Shown in pieces: positions 1-20,586 of a DNA stretch of 64,000 nucleotides. The first letter of the stretch is position 1, and every line of letters starts with the position of its first letter. This DNA comes from Heliomicrobium sp. (GTDB taxonomy: Bacteria > Acidobacteriota > Blastocatellia > RBC074), in NCBI GenBank assembly GCA_021155085.1, contig JAJNQA010000021.1, positions 2,875 to 66,874 of the forward strand. Direction: 5' to 3'. Both the position numbers and the translations under genes were made by a program. The notes below the pieces were generated by a model. That model was not told the origin of the DNA and did not search any database. It saw only the letters and a program-made list of their open reading frames with translations.

Positions 1-1
1 C

Positions 2-1027
2 AGCCCGGAAGAATTGCAGAAGATGTTTGACGATGACGGGCCGAATTCAATCTTTGTTCGCGAAGGCTATCTGCGCCGCGTCAAGATGGACGCGAAGGTC
101 AATGACGACGGTTGCAATGGCAAATTCGGCGAAGACGACGCGGGCGATGTCATCGCCGGCTACGCACCGGGCATGCCGCCCGAAGTTTTTGAACCGGGTG
201 TTGCGAAAAAGGTTCCCGCCGGAGCGACGCTGATTTTCCAGATTCATTACTCGAAAGTCGCCGGTTCCGTGCAAAAGGATCGTTCGTCCGTCGGGTTGAT
301 TTTCGCCAAAGAGCCGCCGCAAAAACGCATGATCAAACGCGGCATCGAAAATGTCTTTTTCAAAATTCCCGCCGGAGCCACCGCGCACAAGGCGACCGCC
401 TGCTGGCAGCCGAAAGAAGACGTCACCGTTTATTCGATGATGCCGCACATGCACTACCGCGGCGCGGCGATGGAATACAAGGCAACCTATCCCGACGGCA
501 AAACCGAAGTCCTGCTCAACGTGCCGAACTACGATTTCGGCTGGCAGACTAATTACGCGCTGGCCAAACCGAAGCTGATTCCGAAAGGCACGAAGATTCA
601 GGTCACGGCGACCTTCGACAATTCAGCGAAAAACAAAGCCAACCCCGACCCGGCCAAGGATGTGCGCTGGGGCGATCCGACATACGACGAAATGCTGATT
701 GGTTACATTGACTTCATCCCCGAACGCAAAGCCGTTGCGGGGATGGACGCCAAAGCACTGGCCGCCTTCGTCGGGCTGTATGACGCCGGATTGATGAAGA
801 TGAAGGTGGTTCAATCCGGTAACCAGCTTTTCGCTGAAATCGCCGGACAGCCCAGAATCGAACTGTTGCCCGAAGCCGAAAACAAATTCTTCATTCGCGA
901 GATTCAGAATTACGTGACCTTCAGCCGCAACGAAAAAGGCGAAGTCACGGAAGCCACGGTGGAAATGGGCAACCGCCCGATCAAAGCAAAAAAGAAGGTT
1001 GATGCTCCGGCTGGCAGCGGCAATTGA
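2..1027 (+). CDS. PHM/DBH-like copper type II monooxygenase domain protein, paralog 1. It is 5'-truncated by the window edge; the N-terminal part expected to carry the cytochrome c module lies outside the window.
   Basis: The reading frame is open back to base 2. The C-terminal region has MPHMHYRG (HxH CuM motif) and YDEMLIGY (Met ligand), and NYDFGWQTNY, colinear with paralog 2 downstream. Paralog 2 alignment shows the window begins just after the HH CuH position. Confidence 0.6.
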   Translation, partial: SPEELQKMFDDDGPNSIFVREGYLRRVKMDAKVNDDGCNGKFGEDDAGDVIAGYAPGMPPEVFEPGVAKKVPAGATLIFQIHYSKVAGSVQKDRSSVGLIFAKEPPQKRMIKRGIENVFFKIPAGATAHKATACWQPKEDVTVYSMMPHMHYRGAAMEYKATYPDGKTEVLLNVPNYDFGWQTNYALAKPKLIPKGTKIQVTATFDNSAKNKANPDPAKDVRWGDPTYDEMLIGYIDFIPERKAVAGMDAKALAAFVGLYDAGLMKMKVVQSGNQLFAEIAGQPRIELLPEAENKFFIREIQNYVTFSRNEKGEVTEATVEMGNRPIKAKKKVDAPAGSGN

Positions 1028-1213
1028 TCTTACTTTACAAAAGGCGCGAGAAAATCCGTGTAAAAGCGCAGGTTTTCTGCGCCTGGGTTGTATGTTGAAA
1101 TGTGAGTTCGATCCGGGGAATCAAGCAGGAACTGGCAATCAGCCAACGCACCCGTGAATTTCCGCAAGCACATCGCTTGCTCAAACCATAGCAAAGTGTT
1201 CAGAGGTGAATTG

Positions 1214-2476
1214 ATGAAAAAAGCGTCTACCATTTCCGCCGCGATGTTTCTGGCGGCTTTCTGTTTATTCAATCTGCCGGTCACGAACGCCGACAACGAA
1301 CCTAAATCACCGGCCAAAGAGGTTACTTTCAGCAAGGACATCGCGCCGCTCTTTTACAAAAGTTGCAGCGAATGCCATCGCGCGGGTGAAATCGGGCCCT
1401 TTTCAGTGATGAGCTTCAAGGAAGTTCGTCCGTGGGCGAAATCCATCAAGGAGCAGGTTGTCAGCAAGGAGATGCCTCCCTGGCACGCCGATCCAAATCA
1501 CGGTCAATGGATGAATGACCGCCGTTTGTCGCAGGCGGAAATTGACAAAATCATCGCCTGGGTGGATGGCGGCGCGAAAGAAGGCAATCCGAAAGACCTG
1601 CCGCCCGCACCGAAATTCGAGATGGGCTGGAACATCGGCAAACCCGATCAGACCTTTTCCATCCCGGAACAGAGCATTCCGGCGACCGGCGTCGTCGCTT
1701 ATCAATACGTCAAAGTGCCAACCAACTTCAGTGAAGACCGCTGGGTAACGGCGGCGGAAATCCGCTCGACGGGCCGCGAAGCGATGCATCACGTGATCGT
1801 CTTCATTCAGGATCCGAAAAATCCGACACGCACCGACGGCAACTTGCTGGCCGGTTTTGCTCCCGGCGAACAGCCAACCAAGTTTCCAGCCGGATTCGCC
1901 AAAAAGGTTCCGGCGGGAGCGACCCTGATGTTCCAGTTGCATTACACGCCGAACGGCAAGGAACTGAAGGATGTCACAACCATCGGCCTGAAGTACGCAA
2001 AGGAAGAACCCAGGCATCAGGTCCTGACGCGTCCCGTGCTCAACACCGGCTTCAAGATTCCCGCCGGCGCGACCAACCATGAAGTCAAAGCGTTTTACAC
2101 GTTCAGCGAAGACGCGCACATTGCCAGCTTCATGCCGCATATGCACCTGCGCGGCAAGGACTTTGAAATCAAGGCGCACTTTGCTGACGGCACATCGAAG
2201 ATTCTGCTCAGCGTGCCGAAGTACGATTTCAACTGGCAAACGTATTACGTGCCGAAAGAGCCTGTCGCCATTCCGAAAGGAACCAAGATCGAATGCACCG
2301 CGCATTACGACAATTCGGCGGGCAACAAATACAACCCCGACCCGACGAAAGACGTTCGCTGGGGCGATCAAACCTGGGAAGAGATGATGATCGGCTGGCT
2401 CAGCTATTACTATGAAGGAGCGAGCGCGGCCAAGCCGGCAGCGAAACCAGCGGCCGCAAGCAGCAGCGAGAAGTAG
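1214..2476 (+). CDS. Secreted cytochrome c (CxxCH) fused to a PHM/DBH-like copper type II monooxygenase core, paralog 2.
   Basis: ATG at 1214 is preceded by agaggtg and followed by a signal peptide MKKASTISAAMFLAAFCLFNLPVTNA. Heme motif CSECH is present. The CuH-like AMHHVIVF and QLHY motifs, the CuM-like MPHMHLRG (HxH) and the WEEMMIGW Met ligand are all intact. Confidence 0.7.
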   Translation: MKKASTISAAMFLAAFCLFNLPVTNADNEPKSPAKEVTFSKDIAPLFYKSCSECHRAGEIGPFSVMSFKEVRPWAKSIKEQVVSKEMPPWHADPNHGQWMNDRRLSQAEIDKIIAWVDGGAKEGNPKDLPPAPKFEMGWNIGKPDQTFSIPEQSIPATGVVAYQYVKVPTNFSEDRWVTAAEIRSTGREAMHHVIVFIQDPKNPTRTDGNLLAGFAPGEQPTKFPAGFAKKVPAGATLMFQLHYTPNGKELKDVTTIGLKYAKEEPRHQVLTRPVLNTGFKIPAGATNHEVKAFYTFSEDAHIASFMPHMHLRGKDFEIKAHFADGTSKILLSVPKYDFNWQTYYVPKEPVAIPKGTKIECTAHYDNSAGNKYNPDPTKDVRWGDQTWEEMMIGWLSYYYEGASAAKPAAKPAAASSSEK

Positions 2477-2691
2477 GTCAGGCCGCCTGCCTGACAGTAA
2501 AAGCTGAACTCCATTACTCGTAGGCCACGGATTGCTTCCCTAGCGATTCGTGGCCTATTCTGTTGCCGGAGGAAAAAAGCTTTGAGAAATACCAGGTTTG
2601 TTCAAGCCGTCGTCTGGGTCATCGTCATTTTGGTCGTTGCCGGACTTGTCTTGCCGATCATCGCGTCCATGTTCGGCCTTTTCTGAAAATT

Positions 2692-4056
2692 ATGAGAAGC
2701 GTTATGTTCAACCGCCGCCGTACAGCAATCGCCGCGCTGTTTGCCGTTTGCGCCTTCTTTCTTTCCGCTCGCACCGGCAGTTCGCATGATCCAATCACCA
2801 CCAAGGTGATGTTCAACAAGGAAGTCATCCGCATCTTGCAGCGCAATTGCCTGGGCTGCCACGCGCCGAACAAGATCAAAGCCGACATTCCGCTGACGAC
2901 TTACGAAGAAGCCAGGCCCTGGGCCAAAGCCATCAAGGAAGAAGTGCTGGAAAAACGGATGATGCCGTTTCAAGCCGTCAAAGGCTACGGCCGGTTCGAG
3001 CACGATTATGTCCTGCCGCAACGTGAGATTGAATTATTGGTTTCCTGGATCGAAGGCGGCGCGCCGCGCGGCGAAGCGAAAGATTATCCCAAAACCGAAG
3101 TGGCGCAATTGATCAAAGGCGAGACTTGGCCACTCGGCCAGCCGGATTTCATTCTACAGTGGGGCAACGACGCGCAACCCATTTCGAGTCTGAAACTAAA
3201 ACTGGAAAACGAAGCCAAGATCACTGCCGAAGACAATGTCGAAATTCGGTGCTTCGTTCTCCCGACCAAGTTCAAAACCGGCCGCTCGCTCAGCGCGATA
3301 GACTTTCGCCCCGGCGACGGCACGATTGTTCAGAGCGCGACATTCTCGATTTACGATCTTCCGCGCACACGAACGGGCAGAGCAATCGGCGACCCCGTGC
3401 TTCCGTGTGTGGCGGAAGCCAGTTCCAATCCGCTTGGAAGCTGGGTTCCCGGCCAAACCAGCAGTCATTTGCCCTCAAACACCGCGTATTGGCTTCCCGC
3501 CGGAGCAGATATTATTTTGAAAATTCACTACAGCAAGGGCGGAAATATCTCAGCGGACCGAAGTCAGTTGGCACTCTATTTTTCTAAAGAACCAATCAGC
3601 AAACTTGTTCGCTACACGCCGATTACTCCGCCTGAAACGACAATTCTGGCTAATGCGGAAAATCAGCGTGTCCAAACTTCAATGGTATTGAATAATGAGG
3701 CGGAAGCCGTCGCGATTCGTCCTTTGCTCTTCCCTTTCGCCAAATCCCTCGAAGCTACCGCCTATCGTCCGGATGGCTCTGTCGAAGTGTTGATCGTCGC
3801 CAGGCAATACCGCTACGACTGGCAACCAGCCTACCAATTCAGAAAACCGATCCCGCTTCCGAAAGGCACGCGCATTGAAGTGACGGCCTATTTCGACAAC
3901 TCCGACAACAATCGCAACAACCCGAACGATCCGCCGGTGGCGCTGCAATTTGCTGAACCGCTGTGCGAAATCGCGCTAGCGCAGGATGCCCAGCCCAAAG
4001 TCAGTTCCGTTTCCCGGGCCAGCCGCAAAAACCAACGAATCGAACCGCGTCCCTGA
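2692..4056 (+). CDS. Cytochrome c (CxxCH)/PHM-like domain protein, paralog 3, a degenerate copy lacking the Cu-ligand motifs.
   Basis: ATG at 2692 opens a signal peptide MRSVMFNRRRTAIAALFAVCAFFLSA. Heme motif CLGCH is present. The C-terminal domain is colinear with paralog 2, but HMHLRG is replaced by LLFPFAK and EEMMIG by EPLCEIA. Confidence 0.6.
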   Translation: MRSVMFNRRRTAIAALFAVCAFFLSARTGSSHDPITTKVMFNKEVIRILQRNCLGCHAPNKIKADIPLTTYEEARPWAKAIKEEVLEKRMMPFQAVKGYGRFEHDYVLPQREIELLVSWIEGGAPRGEAKDYPKTEVAQLIKGETWPLGQPDFILQWGNDAQPISSLKLKLENEAKITAEDNVEIRCFVLPTKFKTGRSLSAIDFRPGDGTIVQSATFSIYDLPRTRTGRAIGDPVLPCVAEASSNPLGSWVPGQTSSHLPSNTAYWLPAGADIILKIHYSKGGNISADRSQLALYFSKEPISKLVRYTPITPPETTILANAENQRVQTSMVLNNEAEAVAIRPLLFPFAKSLEATAYRPDGSVEVLIVARQYRYDWQPAYQFRKPIPLPKGTRIEVTAYFDNSDNNRNNPNDPPVALQFAEPLCEIALAQDAQPKVSSVSRASRKNQRIEPRP

Positions 4057-4168
4057 ACCAGTCCCTTTCTGGAAAGCAGAACGCGGAGGCCACAAATTCA
4101 TCAGGATCAAATCCGTTGAATCCGTAACATCCGCGTCGTCTGCGCTCTATTTGAGGATCCTGCTATTC

Positions 4169-6724
4169 CTATCGCAGGATCGGCGTGTCGCCGGTCTGAC
4201 CGTGCTGCTGGCTCAGCGTCGTGCCGTCCGTGCTGCGGAGGGCGTACCAGAATCCGGTGGACGAACGCCAGACCGCCACATCGGATTTTCCATCGCCGTC
4301 ATAATCGCTCGGCACCGGGATGTCGAAATACGGCGAGTAGGAAGCGCCCCAGGTCGCATCCAGCAACGAACCGTTCGAGCTGCGGATGCCGTACCACTTG
4401 CTGACATTGCCGCGCCAGATGGTCACGTCGGCTTTGCCGTCGCCGTCATAATCCGCCGGAACCGGCGTGTCGTTGTGCGGATCGTTGGAAGTTCCCCACA
4501 ACACCTGTTGCGTGGCCCCATCCGAGCTGCGTTTGATGTACCAGGCACTGGTGTTACCGCGCCAGACGGCAATGTCCGTCCGTCCGTCGCCGTCGTAATC
4601 CGCCGGAACCGGCGTATCGAAATACGGCGCGTACGAAGCGCCCCAGCTCACTTCCTGCGTGGTGCCGTTGGAGCTGAGCTTGATGTACCAGTTGGTATTC
4701 GATCCGCGCCAGACGGCAATATCCGTCTTGCCGTCGCCGTCGTAATCGCCCGGCACGGGCGTATCGCCAGACACACCCAAAGCTTCCACACGGATCGAGT
4801 TGTCCGAACTGTTAATGATGTACCAGTTGCCATCCAGCGGACGCCAGACTGCAACATCGGTTTTGCCATCGCCGTCGTAATCGCCCGTTGCGGGAACGTC
4901 GTTGTATGGCGCATAAGAAGCGCCCCACAATACTGTTCTCAAGATTCCATCCGAACTGTTGATGATCAGCCATTTGCTTTCATTCCCTCGCCAGACGGCC
5001 AGGTCGGCTTTGCCGTCGCCGTCGAAATCGTTTTTGATCGCGCGGAACTGCGAAACCACCTGCAGGAAGTAGCTCTTTTGCGCGATGCGGAACGACGAAT
5101 CCAGCACGCGGAAGGTGATCGGGAAAAGTCCCGTTTGCGTGGGTGTTCCGCTGATCACACCGGTGCTGGAATTCAGCAGCAGGCCATCCGGCAGCACGCC
5201 GCCAGTAATGCTCCAAATCAGCGGCGCCGTGCCGTTGACCGCCACCAGTGTTGCCGAATACGGAATCCCGATTTTCCCGAACGGCAGCGATTGCGTGGCA
5301 ATCACCAGTTCAGTGGAATCAGCGGTCACCGTTGTGCGCACGATGCGCGTGTTGTTCGATTCGTTCGGATCGTTGATCGAAGAATAGGTTTCGCCGATGT
5401 TGACGATTTCCGATCCCGAAGGCAGGGTTTCATCAACCTTCGCGACGATGACCACGGAGCGCGTGACCAGCAATCCGCTGGTTCCCGCCCAGGTGCAGTC
5501 CACGGTTCCGTTTTCGCCGACATCGGGCACAAAGCAACTGCCACCGCTGCTCGGCGTGGCGGAAACGTAGGTCAGACTCGTGGGCAAACTGTCACGGATG
5601 ACGACGTTGAACGCCGAATCAAACCCCTTGTTTTTGGAAGACAGCGTGTAAGTAATGTTCGTGCCGCGCACGACCGACAGCGCCGGATTCCCGGACATCG
5701 TCAGTTCCAAATCCGCGCCATCCGCCGCCAATGCCCGACAGGCATCCGGCGCAGCGCCGACCGGGATTTCCAGACGGACGCTGGCAGAAACTGCTTTTGA
5801 ATCGAAATTACGCGCGCCGGAAAATGACTGGCTGCGGTTGTTGGCATTCAAAACCGCGCCGACAAAACCACCTTCCCCGGCGGCATCTGAAAGCTCAATT
5901 TCTCCTGTTTGCCCGGATGGAATTGCGGCTTTGCTGTCCGGAAGAAGTTTGGCCAGCGGCGATTGCAACTGGCACGATTCCACCTTGGATTGGAAAGAAA
6001 CTTTGCTGCCGCCGCTATTGGAAACCAGGCCGGAAACCGCTTCGATTGGCGCGCCCTGCTTGGCCAAATTTCCGCCGATGCGATTGACGACCAGAATCGA
6101 ATCATTGCCGTCCGCGGGACTGGCTACCTTATCCAGCGTCAGCACTGCGGGAAGCTGGGCATAACCGGTAGTGCTGCCGTCAAAAACCAGCGCAGCGGAT
6201 TCCGCCGCCTTTTTCGTTCCCTGCAAAGTGCCTTCAAAATTCGCTTTTACAGCGAATGCGTTCAACGCGCCGCCGTGTCCATCCGCTGTTCTGACATCTT
6301 CTGAACCGGTCAGGTAGTTGAAGCCCAACGGTTGCCCGGTCGTTTTATCCACCGCGACGGCCACGGCATATCCGCTGCCTTTCGGATCATAATCCGATGC
6401 GCGGACTTTTACCGTTGCCCCGGCGGTTACGCACAAATAGGTGTCACTGACGCCGCAGCCAGGCTGACGGACGAAGAACAAATGAACCGTGGCCGCTTCT
6501 TTCGGGTTGGTGTTGGTGAGAGTGAGGGTGGTGTCAACGTCTTTTTGGGAGCTATCCGAGTTGTAAAAATTGTAGATCAGCACCGAACCAATTTGTTGTG
6601 TGCCGGGAAGAACCGGCGAGGGATCGGTTTTCTGAACTCGCTGTGCCATTGAACCTGCCAACGGCCAGGCTAATAAGACTGCTGAAAACAAACACAATAA
6701 TCGAACCAGAGTTGAGGATTTCAT
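4169..6724 (-). CDS. Secreted multidomain protein: N-terminal domain of unknown family, a DUF11-like conserved repeat region, and about seven C-terminal FG-GAP/VCBS-type repeats.
   Basis: ATG at 6724 has AGGAAGGAAG just upstream and opens a signal peptide MKSSTLVRLLCLFSAVLLAWPLAGSMA. It ends in DYDGDGKTD(V/I)AVWR...WYI..SSDG repeats with a ~47-aa period. The N-domain (IYNFYNSD...VHLFFV...CGVSDTYLC) is homologous to the 33608..34738 protein. Confidence 0.75.
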   Translation of the reverse strand: MKSSTLVRLLCLFSAVLLAWPLAGSMAQRVQKTDPSPVLPGTQQIGSVLIYNFYNSDSSQKDVDTTLTLTNTNPKEAATVHLFFVRQPGCGVSDTYLCVTAGATVKVRASDYDPKGSGYAVAVAVDKTTGQPLGFNYLTGSEDVRTADGHGGALNAFAVKANFEGTLQGTKKAAESAALVFDGSTTGYAQLPAVLTLDKVASPADGNDSILVVNRIGGNLAKQGAPIEAVSGLVSNSGGSKVSFQSKVESCQLQSPLAKLLPDSKAAIPSGQTGEIELSDAAGEGGFVGAVLNANNRSQSFSGARNFDSKAVSASVRLEIPVGAAPDACRALAADGADLELTMSGNPALSVVRGTNITYTLSSKNKGFDSAFNVVIRDSLPTSLTYVSATPSSGGSCFVPDVGENGTVDCTWAGTSGLLVTRSVVIVAKVDETLPSGSEIVNIGETYSSINDPNESNNTRIVRTTVTADSTELVIATQSLPFGKIGIPYSATLVAVNGTAPLIWSITGGVLPDGLLLNSSTGVISGTPTQTGLFPITFRVLDSSFRIAQKSYFLQVVSQFRAIKNDFDGDGKADLAVWRGNESKWLIINSSDGILRTVLWGASYAPYNDVPATGDYDGDGKTDVAVWRPLDGNWYIINSSDNSIRVEALGVSGDTPVPGDYDGDGKTDIAVWRGSNTNWYIKLSSNGTTQEVSWGASYAPYFDTPVPADYDGDGRTDIAVWRGNTSAWYIKRSSDGATQQVLWGTSNDPHNDTPVPADYDGDGKADVTIWRGNVSKWYGIRSSNGSLLDATWGASYSPYFDIPVPSDYDGDGKSDVAVWRSSTGFWYALRSTDGTTLSQQHGQTGDTPILR

Positions 6725-6938
6725 ACCTAACTTCCTTCCTACAAAAGTTGTGCAGTTTGATTTAGAAAAAGCTCTCAACGCGTCAGCGCTGAAAATTCGC
6801 CTATTGTTGGGACTTGAAACGTATTGGGAGAAAGGGCTGGCCCTTAGTGGCGGGTCTTACAAGTCGGGTTGCACAAGAGAGTTGGAATTAAGATTAAAGT
6901 CGCGGACTTCCATTTTCCGTTTGCCATTATTGATTTGC

Positions 6939-7042: not shown

Positions 7043-8260
7043 TCAGTACCACCGGACTTCGATTTCGTAATTATCCGCACCGCCCGATGAATCGCGAACG
7101 TGAATCACCGCGGTGTAATTGTTTCTGCGAGTGGGTTGTTCGACGATACGGACTTCGCCGCGTCCACGCCGTTTCTCGACGGTGACAGTCACCTCGCGAT
7201 TTGGCAGCGCGCCTGTAAAATCGGCGCGGACACTTTCCGCCGGACGGCCGGAAATCACGCGGTCGCGAACCGTCCGGTCACGGATTTCCAGCACGGTGAC
7301 ATCATCCACCCGCCCGCTCCAGGTCAGGCTCCCTGGACCGCCAATATTTCGATCACGGTCGCGCCCGTACTGATCACGGTCACGATCATAGCGGTCGCGG
7401 TCACGATTAAACCCGCCGCCCGCGCCGGCGTCACTGATCAGCCGCAGACGGAATCGCTGATTGGCTTCGCCGTTGCTGTTGTAAACCTGCATCCGACCGC
7501 CGTCGAACCGCGCGCTTGATGGTGAATCAAGCGACTTGTTACGTTGCGTGGTGAAGTAATATCCGTTATCCGGCCCCGGCTTAATCAGCCATAACTGATT
7601 GACGTCACCGCGATTTTGTCGGGTCAGCACAACTGAATCGCCATTTTCGCCACGCCCTTGAATGGTCATGACATCTCCGGTGCCTGCCAAGCGAACGTAA
7701 TAGAAGCCATTCCCAGCGTCTTCAATATCCCACTGCGAGAGCCGTCCAACGGTGGAATTTTGCACCACAGTCCGCTGGTCGTTCCCGGCGGACAGAAACC
7801 GGTTTGTGGCAACAAGCTGGATTTCATAGCGTCCCGCACGCAACACGCCAGACTGATTCCGGTCATCGTAGCGACGGTCGTCATAACGACGATCGTCGCG
7901 CCGGTCATCGCGCCGATCGTTGAGATTGTCCTCGAACTGCCAGCGCAAATTGTTGACGGTGTTGCGGCGAATATTAATCTGGCCTTCAAACGAGATCGCC
8001 CGCCAGGAGAAACGATCCGTGCTGACTCGCCCCCGTCCACGAATACCGCTTTCGGTTCGGCTGACATAATAGGTTTCAGCCGTCACAATCTGGACTTCGT
8101 AAGTGCGGCGCTCGGCTGCATTAATCTGTGTGACCAATTCGCGCTGAACCAGATCGCGGTCTTCGCGTCGGGCCGCTTGCACCTGGTTATTTTGAGCAAG
8201 CGTCACCCCCGTCAAGCCAATCAGCAGCAAAAGCATCATCAATAAATTTGTCTTTTTCAT
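7043..8260 (-). CDS. Secreted protein with a ricin-B-type beta-trefoil lectin domain and Arg/Asp-rich low-complexity repeats.
   Basis: ATG at 8260 follows an AGGAGG RBS and opens a signal peptide MKKTNLLMMLLLLIGLTGVTLA. QxW-type motifs (NQLWLI, NQRFRL) occur within a beta-trefoil-like region. DDRRDDRRDDRRYDDRRYDDR and RDRDRYDRDRDQYGRDRDR tracts are present. Confidence 0.55.
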   Translation of the reverse strand: MKKTNLLMMLLLLIGLTGVTLAQNNQVQAARREDRDLVQRELVTQINAAERRTYEVQIVTAETYYVSRTESGIRGRGRVSTDRFSWRAISFEGQINIRRNTVNNLRWQFEDNLNDRRDDRRDDRRYDDRRYDDRNQSGVLRAGRYEIQLVATNRFLSAGNDQRTVVQNSTVGRLSQWDIEDAGNGFYYVRLAGTGDVMTIQGRGENGDSVVLTRQNRGDVNQLWLIKPGPDNGYYFTTQRNKSLDSPSSARFDGGRMQVYNSNGEANQRFRLRLISDAGAGGGFNRDRDRYDRDRDQYGRDRDRNIGGPGSLTWSGRVDDVTVLEIRDRTVRDRVISGRPAESVRADFTGALPNREVTVTVEKRRGRGEVRIVEQPTRRNNYTAVIHVRDSSGGADNYEIEVRWY

Positions 8261-8291
8261 CGGTGACCTCCTAAAAAGTTCAATTCGTGGT

Positions 8292-8957
8292 TTATTCAAA
8301 CTGCTTCTTGAATTCGGCAAATTGTTGTTTCAAGTCTGTCAGTCCCTGCCGCAGTATGGCGACCTCTTCTTCCAGCTTTGCGACTCGCTCATTGCTGCCG
8401 CGCGAAGCCGAAGCTGTGGCATCGGCTTTTTCCATGGTCGCCGCAAGTTCCTCCACGTTGATGTCTCCGCCAAGCAGATGGGCGAAGCGCGATTCGCGCG
8501 AACCGGACTGTCGCGGCAGCTTGATGACCAGCGCCTGTTCACGCAAAGACAGGTTCTGCAAAGTCGTTTCAACTTCCGGCAGGTTTTCAAAATTGTGCAA
8601 ATGGGCCGTCCGCGAACGAAGTTCCCCCGGCGTTTGCGGGCCGCGCAATGCCAGCACAGTCATCACAGCCGTCTCGGCTTCATTCAATTCGTAGCCTTTC
8701 GAAAAAAGATGGCCGTATTTCGGCACGCGCGAATCCGAGCCATGAAAGGTGTAGGCCAGTTTCTTCTCGCGCAAACTATCCAGCGCACGCACCACTGTCG
8801 CTTCGTCGTAACTGACCACTGGATCGCGGTGGTTCTTTTGATTGCAGGCATTAACCAGCGCGTTCAACGTCATTGGGTAATAGTCTGGCGTCGCGATCTG
8901 CTTTTCGACCAGCGCGCCAATCACACGCAATTCATAATCATTTAAGATAACTGGCAA
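8292..8957 (-). CDS. YceH/DUF480 (UPF0502) family protein.
   Basis: The N-terminus LNDYELRVIGALVEKQIATPDYYPMTLNALVNACNQK matches the YceH N-terminus, and there is a C-terminal coiled coil. A TTG start at 8957 sits just downstream of an AAGGAGA RBS. Confidence 0.65.
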   Translation of the reverse strand: MPVILNDYELRVIGALVEKQIATPDYYPMTLNALVNACNQKNHRDPVVSYDEATVVRALDSLREKKLAYTFHGSDSRVPKYGHLFSKGYELNEAETAVMTVLALRGPQTPGELRSRTAHLHNFENLPEVETTLQNLSLREQALVIKLPRQSGSRESRFAHLLGGDINVEELAATMEKADATASASRGSNERVAKLEEEVAILRQGLTDLKQQFAEFKKQFE

Positions 8958-11232: not shown

Positions 11233-12402
11233 ATGAAAAAAGATGTGATCGTAATTGGCGGAGGCGCGGCAGGCCTGTTTTGCGCGCTGACCGCAGGCAA
11301 GCGCGGACGCGCCGTGCTGGTGATCGAACACGCTGAAAAGATTGGCAAAAAGATATTGATCAGCGGCGGCGGGCGCTGCAATTTCACCAATCTGCACACC
11401 GCGCCGGAAAATTTCATCTGCCGCAATCCCAACTTTCACAAATCCGCGCTGGCCCGATTCACCCCGTTTGATTTCATCGAACTGGTCCGAAAGCACAAGA
11501 TCGCCTATCACGAAAAGAAGCTCGGCCAATTGTTTTGCGACGACAGCTCCCAACAAATTGTGCGATTGCTGCTGGAAGAATGCCGCCGCGCGCGCGCCGA
11601 GATTCGCGTCAACTGTAAAATTCAGTCGGTCGAGAAAACCAGCCAGACGTTCGTCGTCGAAACCAATCAAGGACGATTTGAAAGCGAATCGTTGGTCGTC
11701 GCCACCGGCGGACTTTCGATTCCCCAAATGGGCGCAACCGATTTCGGCCACCGGCTGGCGCGGCAATTCGGGTTAAAAATAGTGCAACCGAAACCCGCAC
11801 TCGTGCCCTTCACGCTGGCGGAAAATGATCGCAGGGTTTTCAGCCCAATCAGTGGAATTTCCGTTGACGCCGTGGTCAGCCTGCGAGATCAGCAATTTCG
11901 CGAAAACCTGCTGGTCACGCATCAGGGCTTGAGCGGTCCCGCCATCCTGCAAATTTCTTCTTACTGGAATTCCGGCGAAGCGATTGAGATTGATCTGCTG
12001 CCCGATGGCAGCGCTGAGGAGTTGCTGGGCAGCGAACGAGACAGCTTGAAGGAATTGAAAACTCTGCTCGGCCAGCACTGGCCGCAGCGTTTCGCCCAGG
12101 CCTGGACGCAAATCCAGGCTGGATCGAAACCGCTCCGGCAGTATTCCAACAAGGAATTATTCGCCATTGCCGAGAGCATTCATCGCTGGCGAATCACGCC
12201 CAATGGCACTGAGGGATTCCGCAAAGCCGAAGTCACGGCGGGCGGTGTGGACACGGATGAGCTGTCATCAAAAACAATGGAATCCCGCCGCGTACCTGGT
12301 TTGCACTTCATCGGCGAAGTCGTGGATGTAACCGGCTGGCTCGGCGGATACAACTTCCAATGGGCCTGGGCGTCGGGTCACGCCGCAGGCCAAAACGTCT
12401 AA
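11233..12402 (+). CDS. HI0933/YhiN/BaiN-family NAD(P)/FAD-dependent oxidoreductase.
   Basis: Contains VIVIGGGAAGLFCA...LVIE...ILISGGGRCNFTN. Confidence 0.8.
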   Translation: MKKDVIVIGGGAAGLFCALTAGKRGRAVLVIEHAEKIGKKILISGGGRCNFTNLHTAPENFICRNPNFHKSALARFTPFDFIELVRKHKIAYHEKKLGQLFCDDSSQQIVRLLLEECRRARAEIRVNCKIQSVEKTSQTFVVETNQGRFESESLVVATGGLSIPQMGATDFGHRLARQFGLKIVQPKPALVPFTLAENDRRVFSPISGISVDAVVSLRDQQFRENLLVTHQGLSGPAILQISSYWNSGEAIEIDLLPDGSAEELLGSERDSLKELKTLLGQHWPQRFAQAWTQIQAGSKPLRQYSNKELFAIAESIHRWRITPNGTEGFRKAEVTAGGVDTDELSSKTMESRRVPGLHFIGEVVDVTGWLGGYNFQWAWASGHAAGQNV

Positions 12403-12408
12403 ATGATT

Positions 12409-15400
12409 TCAATTTCTCTTGGACATGATCGGCACGTCGCCGCTCTGTCCGTGAACCTTCGACATTTCGACATTGTCCCGGCTGCGCTTGATGGTCCAGA
12501 CGCCGGTCGACGGCTGCCAGAGGGCCGGATCGGCCTTGCCATCTCCGTCGTAATCGGCGACCGCCGGCACATCCCCTTGCGCCGCAGCCCCCAGTGATAC
12601 AGTCCGTGTCACGGCGCTGCTGCTTTCCACGATGTACCAATTCCCTTCCAACGCACGCCACACGGCGATGTCCGTCCGGTTATCCCCATCGTAATCGCCC
12701 GGCACCGGAACATCCGTGCCAACGCCCCATTCGGTGCTGATCGTCAGGGAGTCCGAACTCCGCCGGATATACCAGAACCCCGTACTTCGACGGAACACAG
12801 CCACGTCCGTCTTCCCGTCGCCGTCGTAATCCCCCGGCACGGGAACGTCGCCCAGCGGCGCAAATCCCCAGGTCCTCGCATCTATCCCGCCATCCGAACT
12901 GCGAACGATGTACCAGGCGCCTGCCGAACCGCGCCAGACCGCGACATCGGTTTTGCCATCGCCGTCGTAATCGCCCGGCACCGGCACATCCGTCCCCAGC
13001 CCCCAGAAATGGCTTTTCACCTGGCCGTCGCTGCTTTGTTTGATGAACCAGTAGCCCGCATACTCGCCGCCACGACGGAAGACGGCCAGGTCGGTCTTCC
13101 CATCGCCATCGTAATCGCCCGATACCGTGACATCGTTGTAGGGCGCATAACTTGCTCCCCACGGCGTAGCCTCCACCTTCCCATCGCCGCTGTTGGCGAC
13201 CAGCCAGTTGCCGTCGCTTCCGCGCCAGACCGACAGGTCGCTCTTGCCGTCGCCGTCGAAGTCGCTGAAGACCGTCAACGACGACGCGAAACCCGCGCCG
13301 ATCAGCACCGTGTACATCCGGTTGCCCGAACAAGCTCCCTGCGTTGCCGTGACGGTAAAGGTGTAGCTGCCCACCGCCGTCGGATAACCGAAGAGCAGCC
13401 CATTGGCGCCAAACAAGGTGACCCCCGGCGGCACGCTGCCGCTCGTGATTGTGTAGCTGTAGAGACCGGCTGGCGAAGCCGTGGCGGCGGCGTTGTATAA
13501 CTGCCCGACGTTTCCGTTGGGCAGGCTGGCCGGCAACGTGATGGTCGGGCAGCCGCCACCGCTGATGACCACGGTGTAATCGCGAAAGCCCGTGCAACCG
13601 CCGAAGCCGGTCGCCGTAATGCGGAAGTTGAACGTGCCGCCCGCGGTCGGCGTCCCACTTAAGACCCCCGTCGAAGAATTCAAATTCAACCCGGCCGGCA
13701 AACTGCCGATGGTCACGGCGTAGGTGTATCCACCTCCGGAGGGCGAGGCGGAAATCGTCTGGGTGTATGCCGTGCCCGTTGTCCCGTTCGGCAAACTGGC
13801 CGGCGACAGAGCCACCGTCGGACAGGTGATCGCCAGGGTGTAGCTTTGCGTCGCGTTGCAACCGCCAGCCGTCTGCGCCTTGATCGTGAAGGTGAAGGAG
13901 CCGACGGTGGACGGCAATCCGCTGATCACGCCGGTTGCCGGATTCAACGTGATCCCGCTCGGCAGGCTTCCCGAAATCAGCGAGAAGGTGTGGCTGCCAG
14001 CCGGCGAGACGCTGATCGTCTGGCTGTAGGCCACGCCCGCCTGACCGCCGGGAAGCGGCGAAGTCGGGCTGAGCGTAATTGTCGAGCAGGTGATGGCTAC
14101 CGTGTAAGTACGTGAACCGGAGCAACTGCCCCCCCCGCTGGTTGCTGCCGTGATCGTGAAGTTGAAAGAACCTGTGGTGGTCGGCGTGCCGGTGATCGCG
14201 CCGGTCGAGGCGTTGAGCGTCAAACCCGCCGGCAATGCGCCGCTGCTCACCGCGTAGCTGTAGGTCCCGGCGGGCGAGCCGGCCACCGTCTGACTGTAAC
14301 TGGCGCCGACCGATCCGCCCGGCAGGCTCGACGGATCAACCGTGATGGTCGGGCAACTCACTATCAGCACATAATCCTGGAACCCGGTGCAACCGCCAAA
14401 GCCTGTCGTTGTGATGCGGAAATTGAATGTCCCGCTTTGCGTTGGCGCGCCGCTGAATGCGCCGTTCGAGTTGAGTGTCAAGCCCGCCGGCAGCAGTCCA
14501 CTTGTCACCGCGAAGCTGTAATTGCCGCCCGCCGGGCTCGCGCTGATGGTTTGCGAATATGCCGTGTTGATCGTTACGCCCGGCAAACTCGCCGGGCTGA
14601 GCGTGATCGTCGGACAGACCACGTTGATGACCAGCGTGGCAGTGGTTGTCGCCCCGCAATTGTCAGTCGCGGTGATCGTCACGGTGTAACTGCCGATGAG
14701 CGCCGCGCTGAGCACCGTCACCGCTCCCGTCGCCGCGTTGAGTGAGACGGTCAGCCCGCCGTTGTTGGGCGAAACGCCTTGCAGCATCAGCGGATTGACC
14801 GTCCCGTTGTCGCTCGGCCCGGCTGCCGGATTGATGCTCGGCGTCGTCCCGGCGATGACGGTTTGCGGGTTGTAGCCGAGCATTGGGGGCGTATTCGGCG
14901 TGACTGTCACCGTCAGCGTGCCGGTGCCGGTGGCGTTTTGATTGTCGGTCACCACCAGATTGAAGGTCGCGCTGGTCGCCGCGCAGGTGGTAGCGATGTT
15001 CGCCGTCACCGCGCCGGACGGCGTGATCGTCACGCCGCTAACCGTCACGCCATTGCCGCTGGCGGTCGTCGGATTGCCGTTGATCGTGATGCCCAGCGTA
15101 TTGACCGGCTGATCCGGGTCAACCGCCGTGGCGATGGTGAAGCTGGCCGCATTGCTCCCCGCTTTGACCGTCAGCGTGTCGCTGCTGATGGTTGGCGGCG
15201 TATTGGTTGCCAACGTCGCCGTCGCTGTGTTGCCCGTCCCGCCGTTGGTTGATGTGACGTTGCCGCTGATGTTGACGAACGGCCCTTGCGCGTTCGGCGT
15301 GACATTGACCGAGACGGTGCAAGTGCCGCCCGTGCCCACCGTGCCGCCGGTCAGCATGATCCCTGTGTCGCCCGCAGTCAGCGCGCCGCCTCCGCCATCT

Positions 15401-18400
15401 TGGAGCGTGCCGCCGCAAGTGTTGGTCGTCGTCAGCGGCGTGGCCACCACCAGATTCGGCGAATTCGGGAAGTTGTCGGTGAAGCCGGCGACCGTCAGCG
15501 CGACGGTGTTGGCCGCCGGATTGGTGATCGTGAAGGTCAGCGTCGAGGTCTGGCCAACCGGCACGCTGGCCGGACTGAATGCCTTGCTGATCGAAGGCGG
15601 CGCGACCACCGTGTGCGGTTCGGTGTCAGTGCCGCCATTGAAGTTCGTATCGCCCGCGTAAGTCGCCGTCAACGTGCGTGCGCCCGGCGTGGTCAGCGTA
15701 ATGACGCAGGATCCCCCCGCGACCGTGCCGGTGCAGGTTTCCGCGCCGCCGCTGGCCGTCACGACCACGTTGCCGGTCGCAGTGCCTACGCCTGGCGGTA
15801 CTGCCAGGACCGTGAAGACGACCGTCAGGTTCTGTCCGACAAAGGATGAATCCGGATTGTCCGAAACAATCGTCGTCACCGTGTCGGCTTGGTTGGCAGT
15901 ATGCGGCGCTCCCGCCGAGGTGCTGCCGTTGTAGCTCGTGTCGCCCTGATAGGTGGCCGTCAGCGTGCGATTGCCGACCGCCGTCAGCGCCAATGTACAA
16001 GAACCTGCCGCGACCGTTCCGGTACAGGTTTCCGTCCCGCCGCTGACCGTCACCACGACGTTGCCGGTCGGCGTGCCAGAACCAGGCGCAGCCGCCGCGA
16101 CCGTGAAGTTGACCGTGATGGCCTGGCCGAAGACCGACGGATCGGGATTATCCGAGGTGATGGTCGTCGTCGTGTCCGCTTTGTTGACCTGATGCCCCGC
16201 GCCCGTGGAAGCCGGGCTGGCGTTGTAGTTCGCATCGCCCTGATAAGTCGCCGTCAGCGTCCGCACGCCCGGCGTAAACAGGGCGATGACGCACTGCCCC
16301 GCCGTCACCGTTCCGGTGCAGGAATTGACGCCATCCGAAACCAGGACATTGCCGGTCGGAGTTCCAGCACCTGGCGAAGTCACCGAAACCGTATACGTGA
16401 CCGTCACATTCTGCCCGACCACCGACGGATCCGGCGCATCGGAGAAGATCGCCGCTGTCGTGTCCGCCTTGTTGACCGTGTGCGACACGCCCGCCGAGGT
16501 GCTGCCGTTGAAGTTCGCATCGCCGCTGTAGGTCGCCGTCAGCGTCTTCGCGCCGGCTGTGGTCGAGGTCAGTATGCAACTGGCCGCTGGCAAGGTAATC
16601 GTGCAGGTTCCGCCCGTGCCATCGCTGACCGTCACTGTTCCGGTCGGCGTGCCCGTTCCCGGAGGCGTCACCGCGACATTGGCCGCCACGTTGTAGGCTT
16701 GTCCCGTCACCGACGGATCGGGCGTATACGACGTGATCGTCGTCGTCGTGTTCGCCAACGTGACCTGATGCGCTTCGGTATCGGAACTGCCATTGTAATT
16801 GGCGTCTCCCGCATAGGTCGCCGTCAAGGTTCTATTTCCAATATTGGTCAGGGTGAGCGTGCAAGTCCCCGCCGCAATCGTGCCGGTGCAGGTTTCCGCG
16901 CCGCCGCTGATCGTCACCACGACATTGCCGGTTGGCGTCCCACCGCCCGGCGCGATTGCCGTGACGGAGAAATTGACCGTGACAGCTTGCCCGACAATGG
17001 AGGGGTCCGGATTGTCGGAGCTGATGGTCGTCGTCGTATTGGCCGCGTTGACCTGATGCGCTTCGGTGTCCGAACTGCCGTTGAAATCGGCATTGCCCGC
17101 GTAGGTCGCCGTCAGAGTTCGCGCGCCTGCCGAAGTCAGCGTGATCGTGCAAGTCCCCGCCGCAACCGTGCCGGTGCAGGTTTCCGCCCCGCCGCTGATC
17201 GTCACCACGACGTTGCCGGTTGGCGTCCCAGCGCCCGGCGCAATGGACAGGGTAGTGAAATTAACCGTCACGCTCTGGCCCACGACCGATGGATCGGGAT
17301 TGGCGGAGGTGATAGTCGTCGTCGTATTGGCGGCGTTGACCTGATGCGCTTCGGTGTCCGAACTGCCGTTGAAGTTCGCATCGCCCGCGTAAGTCGCCGT
17401 CAATGTCCGCGCGCCAGCCGAGGTCAGCGTCAGCGTGCAAGTCCCCGCCGCCACCGTGCCGACGCAGGTTTCCGCGCCGCCGCTGATCGTCACCACGACA
17501 TTGCCGGTGGGCGTTCCCGCGCCGGGCGAGTTCGCCGTCACGGTGTAGTTGACCGTCACGCTCTGGCCCACGACTGAAGGGGCGGGATTGTCCGAAGTAA
17601 TGGTTGTCGTCGTATTGGCGGCGTTGACCTGATGCGCTTCGGTGTCCGAACTGCCGTTGAAGTTCGCATCGCCCGCGTAAGTCGCCGTCAAGGTTCGCGC
17701 GCCTGCCGAGGTAAGCGTCAGCGTGCAAGTCCCCGCCGCCACCGTGCCGACGCAGGTTTCACTGCCGCCGCTGACCGTCACCACGACGTTTCCGGTCGGC
17801 GTGCCCGTGCCCGGCGCGTTCACCGTCACGCTGTAATTGACCGTCACGCTTTGCCCGACGACCGACGGGTCGGGATTGTCGGAGGTGATCGTCGTCGTCG
17901 TGTTGGCCAGTGTGACCTGATGGGCTTCGGTGTCGGAACTGCCGTTGTAATTGGCATCGCCCGCATAGGTCGCCGTCAAGGTTCTGTTTCCGATGCCGGT
18001 CAGCGTGAGCGTGCAAGACCCCGCCGCGACCATGCCGGTGCAGGTTTCCGCGCCGCCGCTGATCGTTACCACGACGTTTCCCGTGGGAGTGCCGCCACCC
18101 GGTGCCGCTCCGACGACCGAGAAATTGACTGCGACAGCTTGCCCGACAATGGATGGATCCGGATTGTCGGAAGTGATGGTTGTTGTCGTGTTGGCGGTGT
18201 TGACCTGATGCGCTTCGGTGTCGGAACTGCCGTTGAAGTTCGTGGTCTGCGCGTAAGTCGCCGTCAGTGTTCTGGCGCCTGCCGCGTTGAGTGACAGGGT
18301 GCAAGTCCCCGCCGCCACCGTTCCGGTGCAGGTTTCCGCGCCGCCGCTGACCGTTACCACGACGTTGCCGGTCGGCGTGCCGCTGCCGGGGGAATTGGTC

Positions 18401-20271: not shown

Positions 20272-20586
20272 GGTATCTCCCGTTGAAAGCCACAACCCTG
20301 GGACGCTTCGCCGTCAATGATGAAGCTCCGCAAGAACTGAGATTTTTGTTTTATTTGCGGGGATGCGGAAGTTGCAACGCGCTCAATCGAATTCCCCGTC
20401 CTCAAGCACGAAAAAATTGATTCGGATTTGCCCGGTAATTACCAACCTGCGCCGATGTGACTTCGCCCAGCAACCATTGCAAGGTGAATAATGCGCGACA
20501 AGGCAATATTCGTTGCCTGCACATACTCATCAATATGTTTGGGTTCGTCAATGTCCGGCGGCCCTTTGGACACAGCCAGCACTGAT

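Follow-up and report, generated by a model that had tools for sequence, protein, structure and literature searches.

Positions 2-4056 of the window (the whole stretch of DNA analysed, 64,000 nt) hold three plus-strand paralogs from the genome of a soil bacterium of the Blastocatellia (Acidobacteriota). Each codes for a protein with a signal peptide, in which a one-heme cytochrome c module precedes a copper monooxygenase core of the PHM/DBH type with two domains. They belong to a four-gene array, whose members we call copies 0 to 3. Our preferred reading, to which we give a probability of about 0.6, is that copies 0-2 are periplasmic O2-dependent hydroxylases that receive electrons from their own heme and are assisted by copy 3, an accessory protein; function, substrate and chemistry are inferred here. 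We show the domain composition, the fold, the conservation and loss of ligands, the synteny and the purifying selection.

An earlier, sequence-only reading had described a tandem triplet of cytochrome c/PHM-like fusions. This held within the window, but the array itself has four genes, and the window begins inside the second. The related arrays that we fetched have two to six members each. The overlapping contig L001, which is 100% identical to the window across 4751 nt and reaches 2763 nt further upstream, carries copy 0, a 556-aa paralog with CSECH, VHHII, HMH and DEMM. It also carries the complete copy 1 (L001 2135..3790, 551 aa), whose start lies 629 nt upstream of the window. Copy 1 had rightly been called partial; at full length it has a signal peptide, CAECH and VHHIL, and the claim that each of the three copies pairs a heme module with a copper core held for it as well.

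The window's three genes are true paralogs and not chance matches, since copy 1 shares 48% identity with copy 2 and 32% with copy 3, and the ortholog sets of copies 2 and 3 match each other in a profile-profile comparison with an E of 4e-66 over 363 columns. The WQ motif, which contains the position of PHM Gln272, is invariant across all four paralogs, and a C-terminal DUF3471 domain is present in copies 0 and 1 and absent from copies 2 and 3. Intergenic gaps of 186 and 227 nt among the window's genes are compatible with co-transcription as well as with separate transcription. There is no conservation of the flanking genes, and nothing in the window or in close relatives gave a hint of the substrate. 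The features are listed in Table 1.

Table 1. Features of the three paralogs in window coordinates.
Feature	Position	Strand	Basis or remark
Copy 1, 3' part (341 aa of 551)	2..1027	+	5' end cut by window; core from just past the HH strand, then DUF3471
Copy 1 HMH, CuM histidine pair (~ PHM H242/H244)	446..454	+	alignment; motif occurs once
Copy 1 DEM, holds CuM methionine (~ PHM M314)	686..694	+	alignment; motif occurs once
Copy 1 C-terminal DUF3471 domain (PF11954)	728..961	+	33.8 bits vs cut-off 29.3
Copy 2, 420 aa; signal peptide, one-heme cytochrome c module, complete PHM/DBH-type dicopper core	1214..2476	+	Pfam, structure model, ligand alignment
Copy 2 CSECH, c-type heme attachment motif (C51, C54, H55)	1364..1378	+	invariant in ortholog set and ~145 paralogs
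Copy 2 M87 in EMPPWHAD, probable sixth (axial) heme ligand	1472..1474	+	invariant; axial role inferred from 'MP' motif of class I cytochromes c
Copy 2 H192-H193, two CuH ligands (PHM H107/H108)	1787..1792	+	hhalign, invariance
Copy 2 H243 in FQLHYT, third CuH ligand (PHM H172)	1940..1942	+	hhalign, invariance
Copy 2 H309-M-H311, two CuM ligands (PHM H242/H244)	2138..2146	+	hhalign, invariance
Copy 2 M391 in WEEMM, CuM methionine (PHM M314)	2384..2386	+	hhalign, invariance
Copy 3, 450 aa; signal peptide, one-heme cytochrome c module, PHM-fold domain pair without five of six copper ligands	2704..4056	+	start agrees with database protein P0121 (100% identical)
Copy 3 H28 in G-S-S/H-D-P, predicted first residue of mature protein	2785..2787	+	invariant; cleavage site inferred
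Copy 3 CLGCH, heme attachment motif retained	2848..2862	+	motif occurs once
Copy 3 M86, aligned axial Met	2959..2961	+	alignment
Copy 3 C183, invariant	3250..3252	+	with C235 aligns to PHM C81-C126 disulfide
Copy 3 V209-Q210, where CuH His-His pair would be	3328..3333	+	alignment
Copy 3 C235	3406..3408	+	aligned partner of C183
Copy 3 L341-L-F343 in near-invariant RPLLFPF, where CuM HxH would be	3724..3732	+	alignment
Copy 3 C421, invariant unpaired Cys on strand bearing CuM methionine in active paralogs	3964..3966	+	alignment

Assignment to the PHM/DBH superfamily is supported by profiles and by predicted structures. Pfam PF03712 (Cu2_monoox_C, curated cut-off 23 bits) is exceeded only narrowly by copy 0 (25.7 bits), copy 1 (25.2-26.5) and copy 2 (23.2); PF01082, the Pfam model of the N-terminal domain, did not match the window's proteins even at E<=1. 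The model of copy 2 reaches a pLDDT of 80-95 across its PHM-like part, and every one of its top 31 Foldseek matches is a PHM or a DBH structure (E values of about 1e-11 to 1e-12). PHM is also the best match of the copy 3 model (E 2e-11, TM 0.66). PNGase F, placed in the same SCOP-level 'PHM/PNGase F' fold group, scores far lower and lacks copper ligands as well as heme; the proteins encoded in the window clearly lie on the PHM/DBH side. C-terminal domains falling outside the PHM/DBH superfamily would have refuted the sequence-only reading, and this was not the case.

When 40 copy-2 orthologs were aligned to the sequence of 1sdw_A with hhalign, H192/H193, H243, H309/H311 and M391 fell on PHM H107/H108, H172, H242/H244 and M314, respectively. 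These ligands are invariant in the ortholog set, and the ligand set, CxxCH and the Met are found in essentially all of ~145 paralogous ORFs from 80 loci. Copies 0, 1 and 2 keep all six copper ligands, three His at CuH and two His plus a Met at CuM. It had been claimed that copy 2 retains all canonical ligand motifs, and this held, each quoted motif being present once. Copper and heme loading are inferred, and Cu-site geometry could not be measured on the predicted model. Of the array's members, copy 2 shows the strongest conservation (dN/dS 0.06, 99% identity between sister strains), and it has at least 8000 homologs.

The heme module lies N-terminal to the CuH domain. CxxCH occurs in 119 of 120 copy-2-type and in all 120 copy-3-type homologs, and two members of the family, P0241 and P0245, score above the cut-off of PF13442. 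In the window's own proteins, the cytochrome c models of Pfam remain below cut-off (21.9 vs 27), and the heme region has low confidence in the models of both copy 2 and copy 3.

Among known systems, PHM (the PAM catalytic core; 1phm, 1sdw) shares the six copper ligands aligned in copies 0-2 and the Gln272 of the WQ motif, and copy 3 C183/C235 aligns with the C81-C126 disulfide of PHM. On the other hand, our proteins carry a cytochrome c module in front and belong to the bacterial periplasm rather than the secretory granule, and the copy 2 core has no disulfides and is missed by PF01082. One might propose that the catalytic copies are bacterial peptidylglycine alpha-hydroxylating enzymes that act on peptide C-termini as PHM does. 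PHM being the best structural match speaks for this. So does DUF3471, a domain that co-occurs with S12 peptidases and beta-lactamase-fold proteins, so that copies 0 and 1 might have peptides as ligands. However, the proteins are a mere 15-17% identical to PHM, neither the array nor its flanks contain a gene for a PAL-like lyase, and the PHM contacts to the glycine carboxylate and backbone have given way to other residues (R240 to Met, with Met, Leu or Phe across the paralogs; N316 to Ile; Y318 to Trp). Since the peptide-carboxylate residues of PHM are not conserved, the substrate should not be a glycine-extended peptide, and we regard a PHM-type peptide enzyme as very unlikely.

Dopamine beta-hydroxylase, tyramine beta-monooxygenase and MOXD1 (4zel) likewise place an extra module ahead of the CuH domain, followed by the CuM domain. 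Their module is a DOMON, whose relatives bind heme in other proteins, whereas ours is a covalent c-type cytochrome; our proteins also lack a dimerisation domain, and their reductant is presumably a respiratory carrier rather than ascorbate. In the hydroxylase reading that we favour, respiratory carriers of the periplasm would supply electrons one at a time to the covalent heme, which would hand them to CuH, the putative point of electron entry, in place of the ascorbate of animals. CuM would bind O2 and activate it for the hydroxylation of a C-H bond. That there are several diverged paralogs, and that two of them carry DUF3471, suggests several related substrates. A built-in heme replacing ascorbate had already been put forward in the sequence-only reading; we find it reasonable, but it remains an inference, as does the direction of electron flow, and the heme-CuH distance was not measured. 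Cytochrome c-fused copper nitrite reductases are known, and cellobiose dehydrogenase feeds LPMOs. In these systems, as would be the case here, a mononuclear heme domain gives single electrons to a copper centre unable to use a two-electron donor directly; their copper folds (cupredoxin, LPMO) and chemistry are nevertheless unrelated, and the electron path in our family is inferred.

Electrons could also flow in the reverse direction. The copper core would then oxidise a substrate, in the manner of an oxidase or a dehydrogenase, and the respiratory chain would receive the electrons by way of the heme, which would make these proteins energy-conserving oxidoreductases and not hydroxylases. Quinohemoprotein dehydrogenases provide a precedent, and a fused cytochrome c accepts electrons in many periplasmic dehydrogenases. 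Moreover, at 7 of 77 loci a family member has a PQQ dehydrogenase gene as its neighbour, which speaks for an oxidative setting in the periplasm. Against this possibility, the full CuH (His3) and CuM (His2Met) set is strictly kept. In every characterised member this set serves O2 activation with two external electrons per turnover, the chemistry of PHM and DBH, and to our knowledge no protein of the PHM/DBH fold works as a dehydrogenase. We therefore consider reverse flow unlikely.

Copy 3 differs from its neighbours. It had been claimed to have lost its copper ligands while keeping the heme, and this held, except that the third CuH histidine is still present in this strain (H275, in KIHYSK); most close orthologs have Arg there. 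The Met-motif region reads PLCEIA, with Ala or Ile at the position of the Met. In a subgroup of the family with VHCA, one CuH His is kept with a Cys beside it, and the third His is kept too.

The loss of five of six copper ligands might indicate a decaying, functionless duplicate, a pseudogene in the making, and copy 3 is indeed the fastest-evolving member of the array (83% identity between sister strains vs 99% for copy 2). However, its frame is intact, its dN/dS against the sister strain is 0.21, its predicted fold is preserved and it has at least 1389 homologs. Among 42 orthologs that are 55-83% identical, about 95 columns do not vary, the heme motif and RPLLFPF among them. Its orthologs span Blastocatellia and Terriglobia; at 24 loci the gene lies directly downstream of a copy-2 ortholog on the same strand (median gap 85 nt), always in this position, and the copper-less gene is the last in every array examined. 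Decay is all but excluded by these data: copy 3 represents a conserved, copper-ligand-less ortholog family under purifying selection that retains heme and fold.

The label 'heme-only pseudo-enzyme', given to copy 3 by the sequence-only reading, held only in part, for a protein without its copper ligands that nevertheless belongs to a conserved family. It is probably too simple because of the purifying selection, the invariant N-terminal His and the lone Cys, although the role of copy 3 is inferred. We read copy 3 as a non-catalytic partner that may relay electrons to or from the catalytic copies, dock on them or carry a new metal or thiol site built from that His and Cys. The SOD1-like domain of CCS, which lacks the catalytic copper site and docks on SOD1, offers an analogy, being likewise a paralog-derived domain that lost its copper site and kept its fold. 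The fold of copy 3 is nevertheless unrelated to that of CCS, its heme is retained, and there is no demonstration that it interacts with the catalytic copies or transfers copper.

A rival reading gives the new metal or thiol site the leading part. It would replace the lost sites, and copy 3 would either supply its catalytic neighbours with copper, as a chaperone or insertase, or catalyse a reaction itself. The His is found in 119 of 120 copy-3-type homologs and in all 21 copper-less ORFs, but in none of 120 copy-2-type proteins. It opens the motif H[ED]P[IV]TT, which directly follows a -3/-1 small-residue signal-peptidase site and is shared by distant Terriglobia versions. At the mature N-terminus, this His would bind metal through its amino group and imidazole, giving a histidine-brace-like site, possibly with the lone Cys as a further ligand. 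C421 is invariant and the sole Cys without a partner, and both the VHCA subgroup and the CCS analogy are compatible with such a role. On the other hand, the cleavage site is only predicted, the N-terminal segment has a pLDDT below 50, which leaves its placement relative to C421 or the heme undetermined, the His might just as well serve as a ligand of the heme, and no known copper-chaperone family matches copy 3. We cannot rule out a new site and keep it as a possibility beside the accessory role that we prefer.

Clustered at 50% identity, the wider family amounts to ~14,000 clusters at E<=1e-10, and its members often have a periplasmic-type redoxin domain fused in front. No paper describing cytochrome c/PHM-type fusion proteins was found in the literature searched, in line with the earlier claim that this is not a characterised system, and no experimental data of any kind exist for the family. 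A copper core of the type that makes neuropeptides and noradrenaline in animals occurs here in bacterial, heme-fused form, in a very large family that has apparently never been studied.

Three long ORFs lie on the forward strand within window positions 1-4056, and the sequence-only reading had described them as a triplet of cytochrome c/PHM-like fusions (PHM, peptidylglycine alpha-hydroxylating monooxygenase). This held in part: the window does contain three such ORFs, but the Logan contig L001, identical to the window across the entire 4751-nt overlap and adding 2763 nt upstream, reveals a further 556-aa paralog, copy 0, with CSECH, VHHII, HMH and DEMM motifs. The same contig provides the complete copy 1 (551 aa), with its signal peptide, CAECH and VHHIL, and a single 76.7-kb NCBI contig carries all four proteins. 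The array is a quartet rather than a triplet. Copies 1-3 are clear paralogs, copy 1 being 48% identical to copy 2 and 32% to copy 3, and the copy-2 and copy-3 ortholog profiles aligning with an E-value of 4e-66. In close relatives, NCBI names these proteins only "cytochrome c", "hypothetical protein" or "DUF3471 domain-containing protein". A promoter and terminator scan of window positions 1-4400 found no more sites than shuffled controls and was uninformative; therefore, the operon structure rests on synteny only.

Features of the array and its surroundings (window coordinates)
Feature	Position	Strand	Description
Copy 1, 3' part	2..1027	+	ORF open at window 5' end
Copy 2	1214..2476	+	ORF, 420 aa
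Copy 3	2704..4056	+	ORF, 450 aa; start as in 100% identical database protein P0121
Secreted-type repeat protein	4169-6778	-	869 aa; DUF11, He_PIG, FG-GAP repeats; recurring DYDGDGKxD...VWR unit
RicinB-lectin-domain protein	7043-8320	-	425 aa; highly charged low-complexity runs, e.g. DRRDDRRDDRRYDDRRYDDR, DRDRYDRDRDQYGRDRDR
Secreted-type repeat protein	12409-20295	-	2628 aa; ten Big_3_5, six He_PIG, FG-GAP repeats
Antisense ORF opposite copy 2	1403-2371	-	322 aa
Antisense ORF opposite FG-GAP gene	3986-5800	+	604 aa

Profile searches alone gave modest support for a catalytic core of the PHM/dopamine beta-hydroxylase (DBH) type. The Pfam C-terminal domain PF03712 (gathering score 23 bits) matched copy 0 (25.7 bits), copy 1 (25.2-26.5) and copy 2 (23.2), all marginally, and did not match copy 3. 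The N-terminal domain PF01082 (Cu2_monooxygen) gave no match in copies 1-3 even at E<=1; at E<=0.1, copy 0 and the full-length copy 1 gave none either. The NCBIfam search returned no family. Likewise, PDB searches by sequence alone, whether with copy 2 or with the profile of its orthologs, did not find PHM; they gave only insignificant matches to a mono-heme cytochrome c (4rlr) and the heme domain of hydrazine synthase alpha. The question was settled by structure prediction and fold search. In the copy 2 model, predicted with pLDDT 80-95 in its beta-rich part, the top 31 Foldseek matches were all PHM or DBH, and the copy 3 model gave the same fold result (E 2e-11, TM 0.66). Fold comparison shows the two-domain beta-sandwich of the catalytic core, its N-domain being recognised by fold search and hhalign only.

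We mapped the copper ligands by aligning, with hhalign, the sequence of 1sdw_A, a PDB chain that differs from the rat PHM core at only a few N-terminal residues, against a profile of 40 copy-2 orthologs. At CuH, H192/H193 and H243 of copy 2 correspond to H107/H108 and H172 of PHM; at CuM, H309/H311 and M391 correspond to H242/H244 and M314. The six ligands do not vary among copy-2 orthologs, nor do the CxxCH heme motif and a Met-Pro that lies downstream of it; essentially all of ~145 paralogous ORFs from 80 loci have them too. In the PHM/DBH family (copper type II, ascorbate-dependent monooxygenases), two copper sites ~11 A apart across a cleft hydroxylate a C-H bond with O2 and two external electrons from ascorbate; for copies 0-2, two bound coppers and O2-dependent, two-electron C-H hydroxylation are inferred from fold and sequence alignment alone.

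The residues with which PHM holds the carboxylate and backbone of peptidyl-glycine are not conserved: R240, N316 and Y318 become M307, I393 and W395 in copy 2, and across copper-competent paralogs the R240 column holds M, L, F, H and others, never R. The window proteins may therefore work like PHM and DBH, as fold and ligand conservation suggest, but they are not peptide-amidating orthologs, because all three residues are replaced by Met, Ile and Trp. True peptide amidation by the catalytic copies, the rival that these replacements bear upon, is very unlikely.

Up to this point the sequence-only reading stands well. The motifs it had quoted each occur once and where it had placed them, and the HH, HxH and Met that it had proposed as copy 2 ligands all align on PHM ligands, to which a third His is now added. 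Its placement of the proteins in the PHM/DBH superfamily is upheld by PF03712 (copies 0-2), Foldseek and hhalign, with PF01082 silent.

Each protein carries one CxxCH after a hydrophobic signal sequence, the attachment motif of an exported, class I-like mono-heme cytochrome c, and the motif is present in 239/240 homologs. The cytochrome c profile PF13442 falls short of its cut-off (27 bits) in copies 0-2 (21.6-23.1) and reaches only 12.7 in copy 3; it passes in two other family members, the database proteins P0241 (37.1) and P0245 (34.1). The invariant Met-Pro lies ~32 residues after CxxCH, and its Met is the putative distal axial ligand of the heme, whose attachment is likewise inferred.

Copy 3 retains its heme motif (CLGCH) and the aligned Met. 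At the His-His of CuH, V/Q or Q/S is found according to the aligner used; at CuM, LLF (inside RPLLFPF) takes the place of HxH and Ala/Ile that of Met. Neither the CuH nor the CuM ligand set is complete in copy 3, and of CuH only the third His, H275, is kept, a position that is His in the window strain and Arg in most close orthologs. The earlier claim that this copy had kept its heme site and lost its copper ligands is upheld, except for H275 in this strain. Separately, in a subgroup of copper-less orthologs (loci L008, L012-L014, L017, L066, L068 and L074) V-H-C-A replaces His-His and the third CuH His is kept, leaving at the former electron-transfer copper site a His/Cys/His set that the window copy 3 does not have.

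Copy 3 is not decaying. We found at least 1389 homologs of copy 3 and ~95 invariant columns among 42 orthologs that are 55-83% identical. Against the sister strain, dN/dS is 0.21 for copy 3, compared with 0.03, 0.14 and 0.06 for copies 0, 1 and 2, respectively. These are MAFFT-based whole-gene values, used along with a nucleotide identity profile; ungapped segment-wise values for copy 3 residues 151-250 are invalid because an indel shifts the register. At 24 loci, from Blastocatellia plus a few Terriglobia and other Acidobacteriota, the copper-less gene lies directly downstream of the copy-2 ortholog on the same strand, with a median gap of 85 nt, and is always last. Considering its many homologs, its invariant columns, its dN/dS and this constant position, we rejected the possibility that copy 3 is a pseudogene, and the related view of it as a functionless relic is all but excluded.

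Copy 3 also has features of its own. H-[ED]-P-[IV]-T-T comes straight after the hydrophobic signal sequence, whose positions -3 and -1 hold small residues, in 119 of 120 copy-3 homologs; the motif is found in 21/21 copper-less ORFs fetched and in 0/120 copy-2-type proteins. Given this placement, the mature protein is predicted to begin with that His, the cleavage itself being inferred. An invariant, unpaired cysteine, C421, sits three residues ahead of the CuM Met position, on the strand that bears this Met in active copies; C183 and C235, both invariant, align with the C81-C126 disulfide of PHM. Histidine-brace copper proteins (LPMO, CopC or PmoB type) bind Cu through the amino group and side chain of a mature N-terminal His, together with a second His. 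For copy 3, such a site would rest on the invariant His at the predicted signal-peptidase +1 position alone, and we found no fold or profile similarity to those families.

Over 12.8 kb, the window aligns with the sister-strain contig (L082) at ~99% identity, with the exception of a ~900-nt patch at window ~3000-3900 (copy 3 aa ~100-400), where identity is only 73-80% and synonymous divergence is high. Whole-gene dS is 0.49 for copy 3 and 0.05 for copy 2, and the heme module and last 50 residues of copy 3 are nearly identical between the two strains. The patch has the look of an allele of the ex-catalytic domain acquired through recombination. Two smaller patches also diverge within this alignment: identity is 92.7% at window 1-300, the insertion region of copy 1, and 86-88% at 12001-12600, in the giant Ig-like/FG-GAP gene.

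The analysis shows which domains are present, how they fold, that both copper sites and the heme motif are strictly conserved, and that the genes keep their synteny and evolve under purifying selection. The reading that we favour, with a probability of roughly 0.6, is that the array encodes periplasmic, heme-fed, O2-dependent hydroxylases with copy 3 as an accessory. The proteins would be exported and then matured as c-type cytochromes. The heme would take single electrons from periplasmic carriers and reduce CuH in place of ascorbate, which most bacteria do not make. CuM would then activate O2 and hydroxylate a substrate other than peptidyl-glycine, which may differ between paralogs. Electron flow in the reverse direction, with the proteins serving as oxidases or dehydrogenases, seems unlikely to us. 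Copy 3 probably works together with the catalytic copies; its role may be that of a redox or docking partner or of a copper-handling protein. For the latter, CCS and SOD1 offer an analogy, with the N-terminal His and the lone Cys as the putative copper-handling residues.

The family extends well beyond this array. Searching 1.84 billion representative proteins with a profile gave 20,808 hits at E<=1e-3, 13,893 at E<=1e-10 and 4,803 at E<=1e-30, the ~14,000 at E<=1e-10 being sequence clusters at 50% identity. Scanning one genome per species yielded at least 599 loci, mostly from Blastocatellia, Bryobacterales, Terriglobia, Vicinamibacterales and Planctomycetaceae. In Blastocatellia the genes typically form arrays of two to six paralogs with the copper-less gene last, and more distant homologs are usually single genes. 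Many members are ~200 residues longer at the N-terminus, and 8 of the 10 longer members scanned carry an AhpC-TSA/Redoxin domain directly before the cytochrome c-PHM-like module, which accounts for "thiol-disulfide isomerase" and similar names in databases. Further additions in some members are ankyrin, esterase, EF-hand, BlaR1-type M56, DUF1080, GDSL or CBM48 domains. Family sequences sit in databases under generic names, and the literature searched, including a 2025 review of PHM-type chemistry, holds no description of bacterial cytochrome c-PHM-like proteins. As far as that search goes, the sequence-only reading was right that this is not a characterised system: a familiar catalytic core is combined with a new module, the putative built-in electron donor, and is accompanied by a conserved family of copper-less partners that had not been described.

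Across 20 array loci, nothing in the flanks is conserved beyond the paralogs. Downstream of the array in the window come convergent genes encoding an FG-GAP/DUF11 protein and a RicinB-lectin protein; secondary blastn matches show DNA-level similarity between the FG-GAP parts of the two repeat proteins. Upstream of the array, L082 carries genes for a VIT-domain protein, an exosortase and a 173-aa protein, and the related contig L002 has an exosortase and a 170-aa gene. These lie on the array strand (L082 568-4549; L002 1-1501) and encode an 886-aa VIT-domain protein (L082), an EpsH-family exosortase and an unannotated protein of ~170 aa. The exosortase and the 170-aa gene were considered as conserved partners and rejected, being upstream in the closest relatives only. 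No array protein has a PEP-CTERM-like tail, which makes an exosortase link doubtful. ORFs equivalent to the antisense ORF opposite copy 2 occur opposite paralogs at 20/20 array loci, and the antisense ORFs are likely shadow ORFs of a conserved coding strand rather than genes.

In the wider family, a Tat-exported Amidohydro_2 protein recurs as a neighbour at 11 loci, of which 4 are arrays, and PQQ dehydrogenases do so at 7, VOC/glyoxalase-fold proteins at 6 and DUF2911 proteins at 5. None has a homolog in the window, and they are therefore leads only. The Amidohydro_2 protein (PF04909, ~505 aa, with a Tat signal) adjoins family members in L012, L013, L014, L016, L027, L045, L053, L055, L056, L059 and L069, in many cases as the gene just downstream. 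Such neighbours could hint at periplasmic small-molecule oxidation, and perhaps at the substrate class of the family.

PHM and DBH are textbook animal enzymes whose mechanism is still debated on two points: long-range electron transfer between the two uncoupled coppers, and what part the reductant plays. If the exact six-ligand site is indeed joined to a covalently bound heme, electron delivery to CuH could be triggered and followed optically, and having the fold in bacterial form would allow its expression to be attempted in bacterial hosts. The conserved copper-less partner would offer a clean case for learning what a "dead" metalloenzyme paralog does. A bolder reading, which we regard as no more than possible, is that of an undescribed, self-sufficient class of periplasmic heme-c/dicopper monooxygenases with a dedicated, obligatory copper-less paralog whose new site, made of the mature N-terminal His and the lone Cys, would make it a copper insertase or redox gate for the catalytic copies; if true, PHM-type enzymes would have a new kind of accessory protein, and abundant soil bacteria would be using the unit to hydroxylate non-peptide organic matter. 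The family is concentrated in Acidobacteriota and Planctomycetota, major and poorly understood phyla of soil and water, and with up to five or six adjacent paralogs in some genomes it may represent an unrecognised route of oxidative attack on organic matter.
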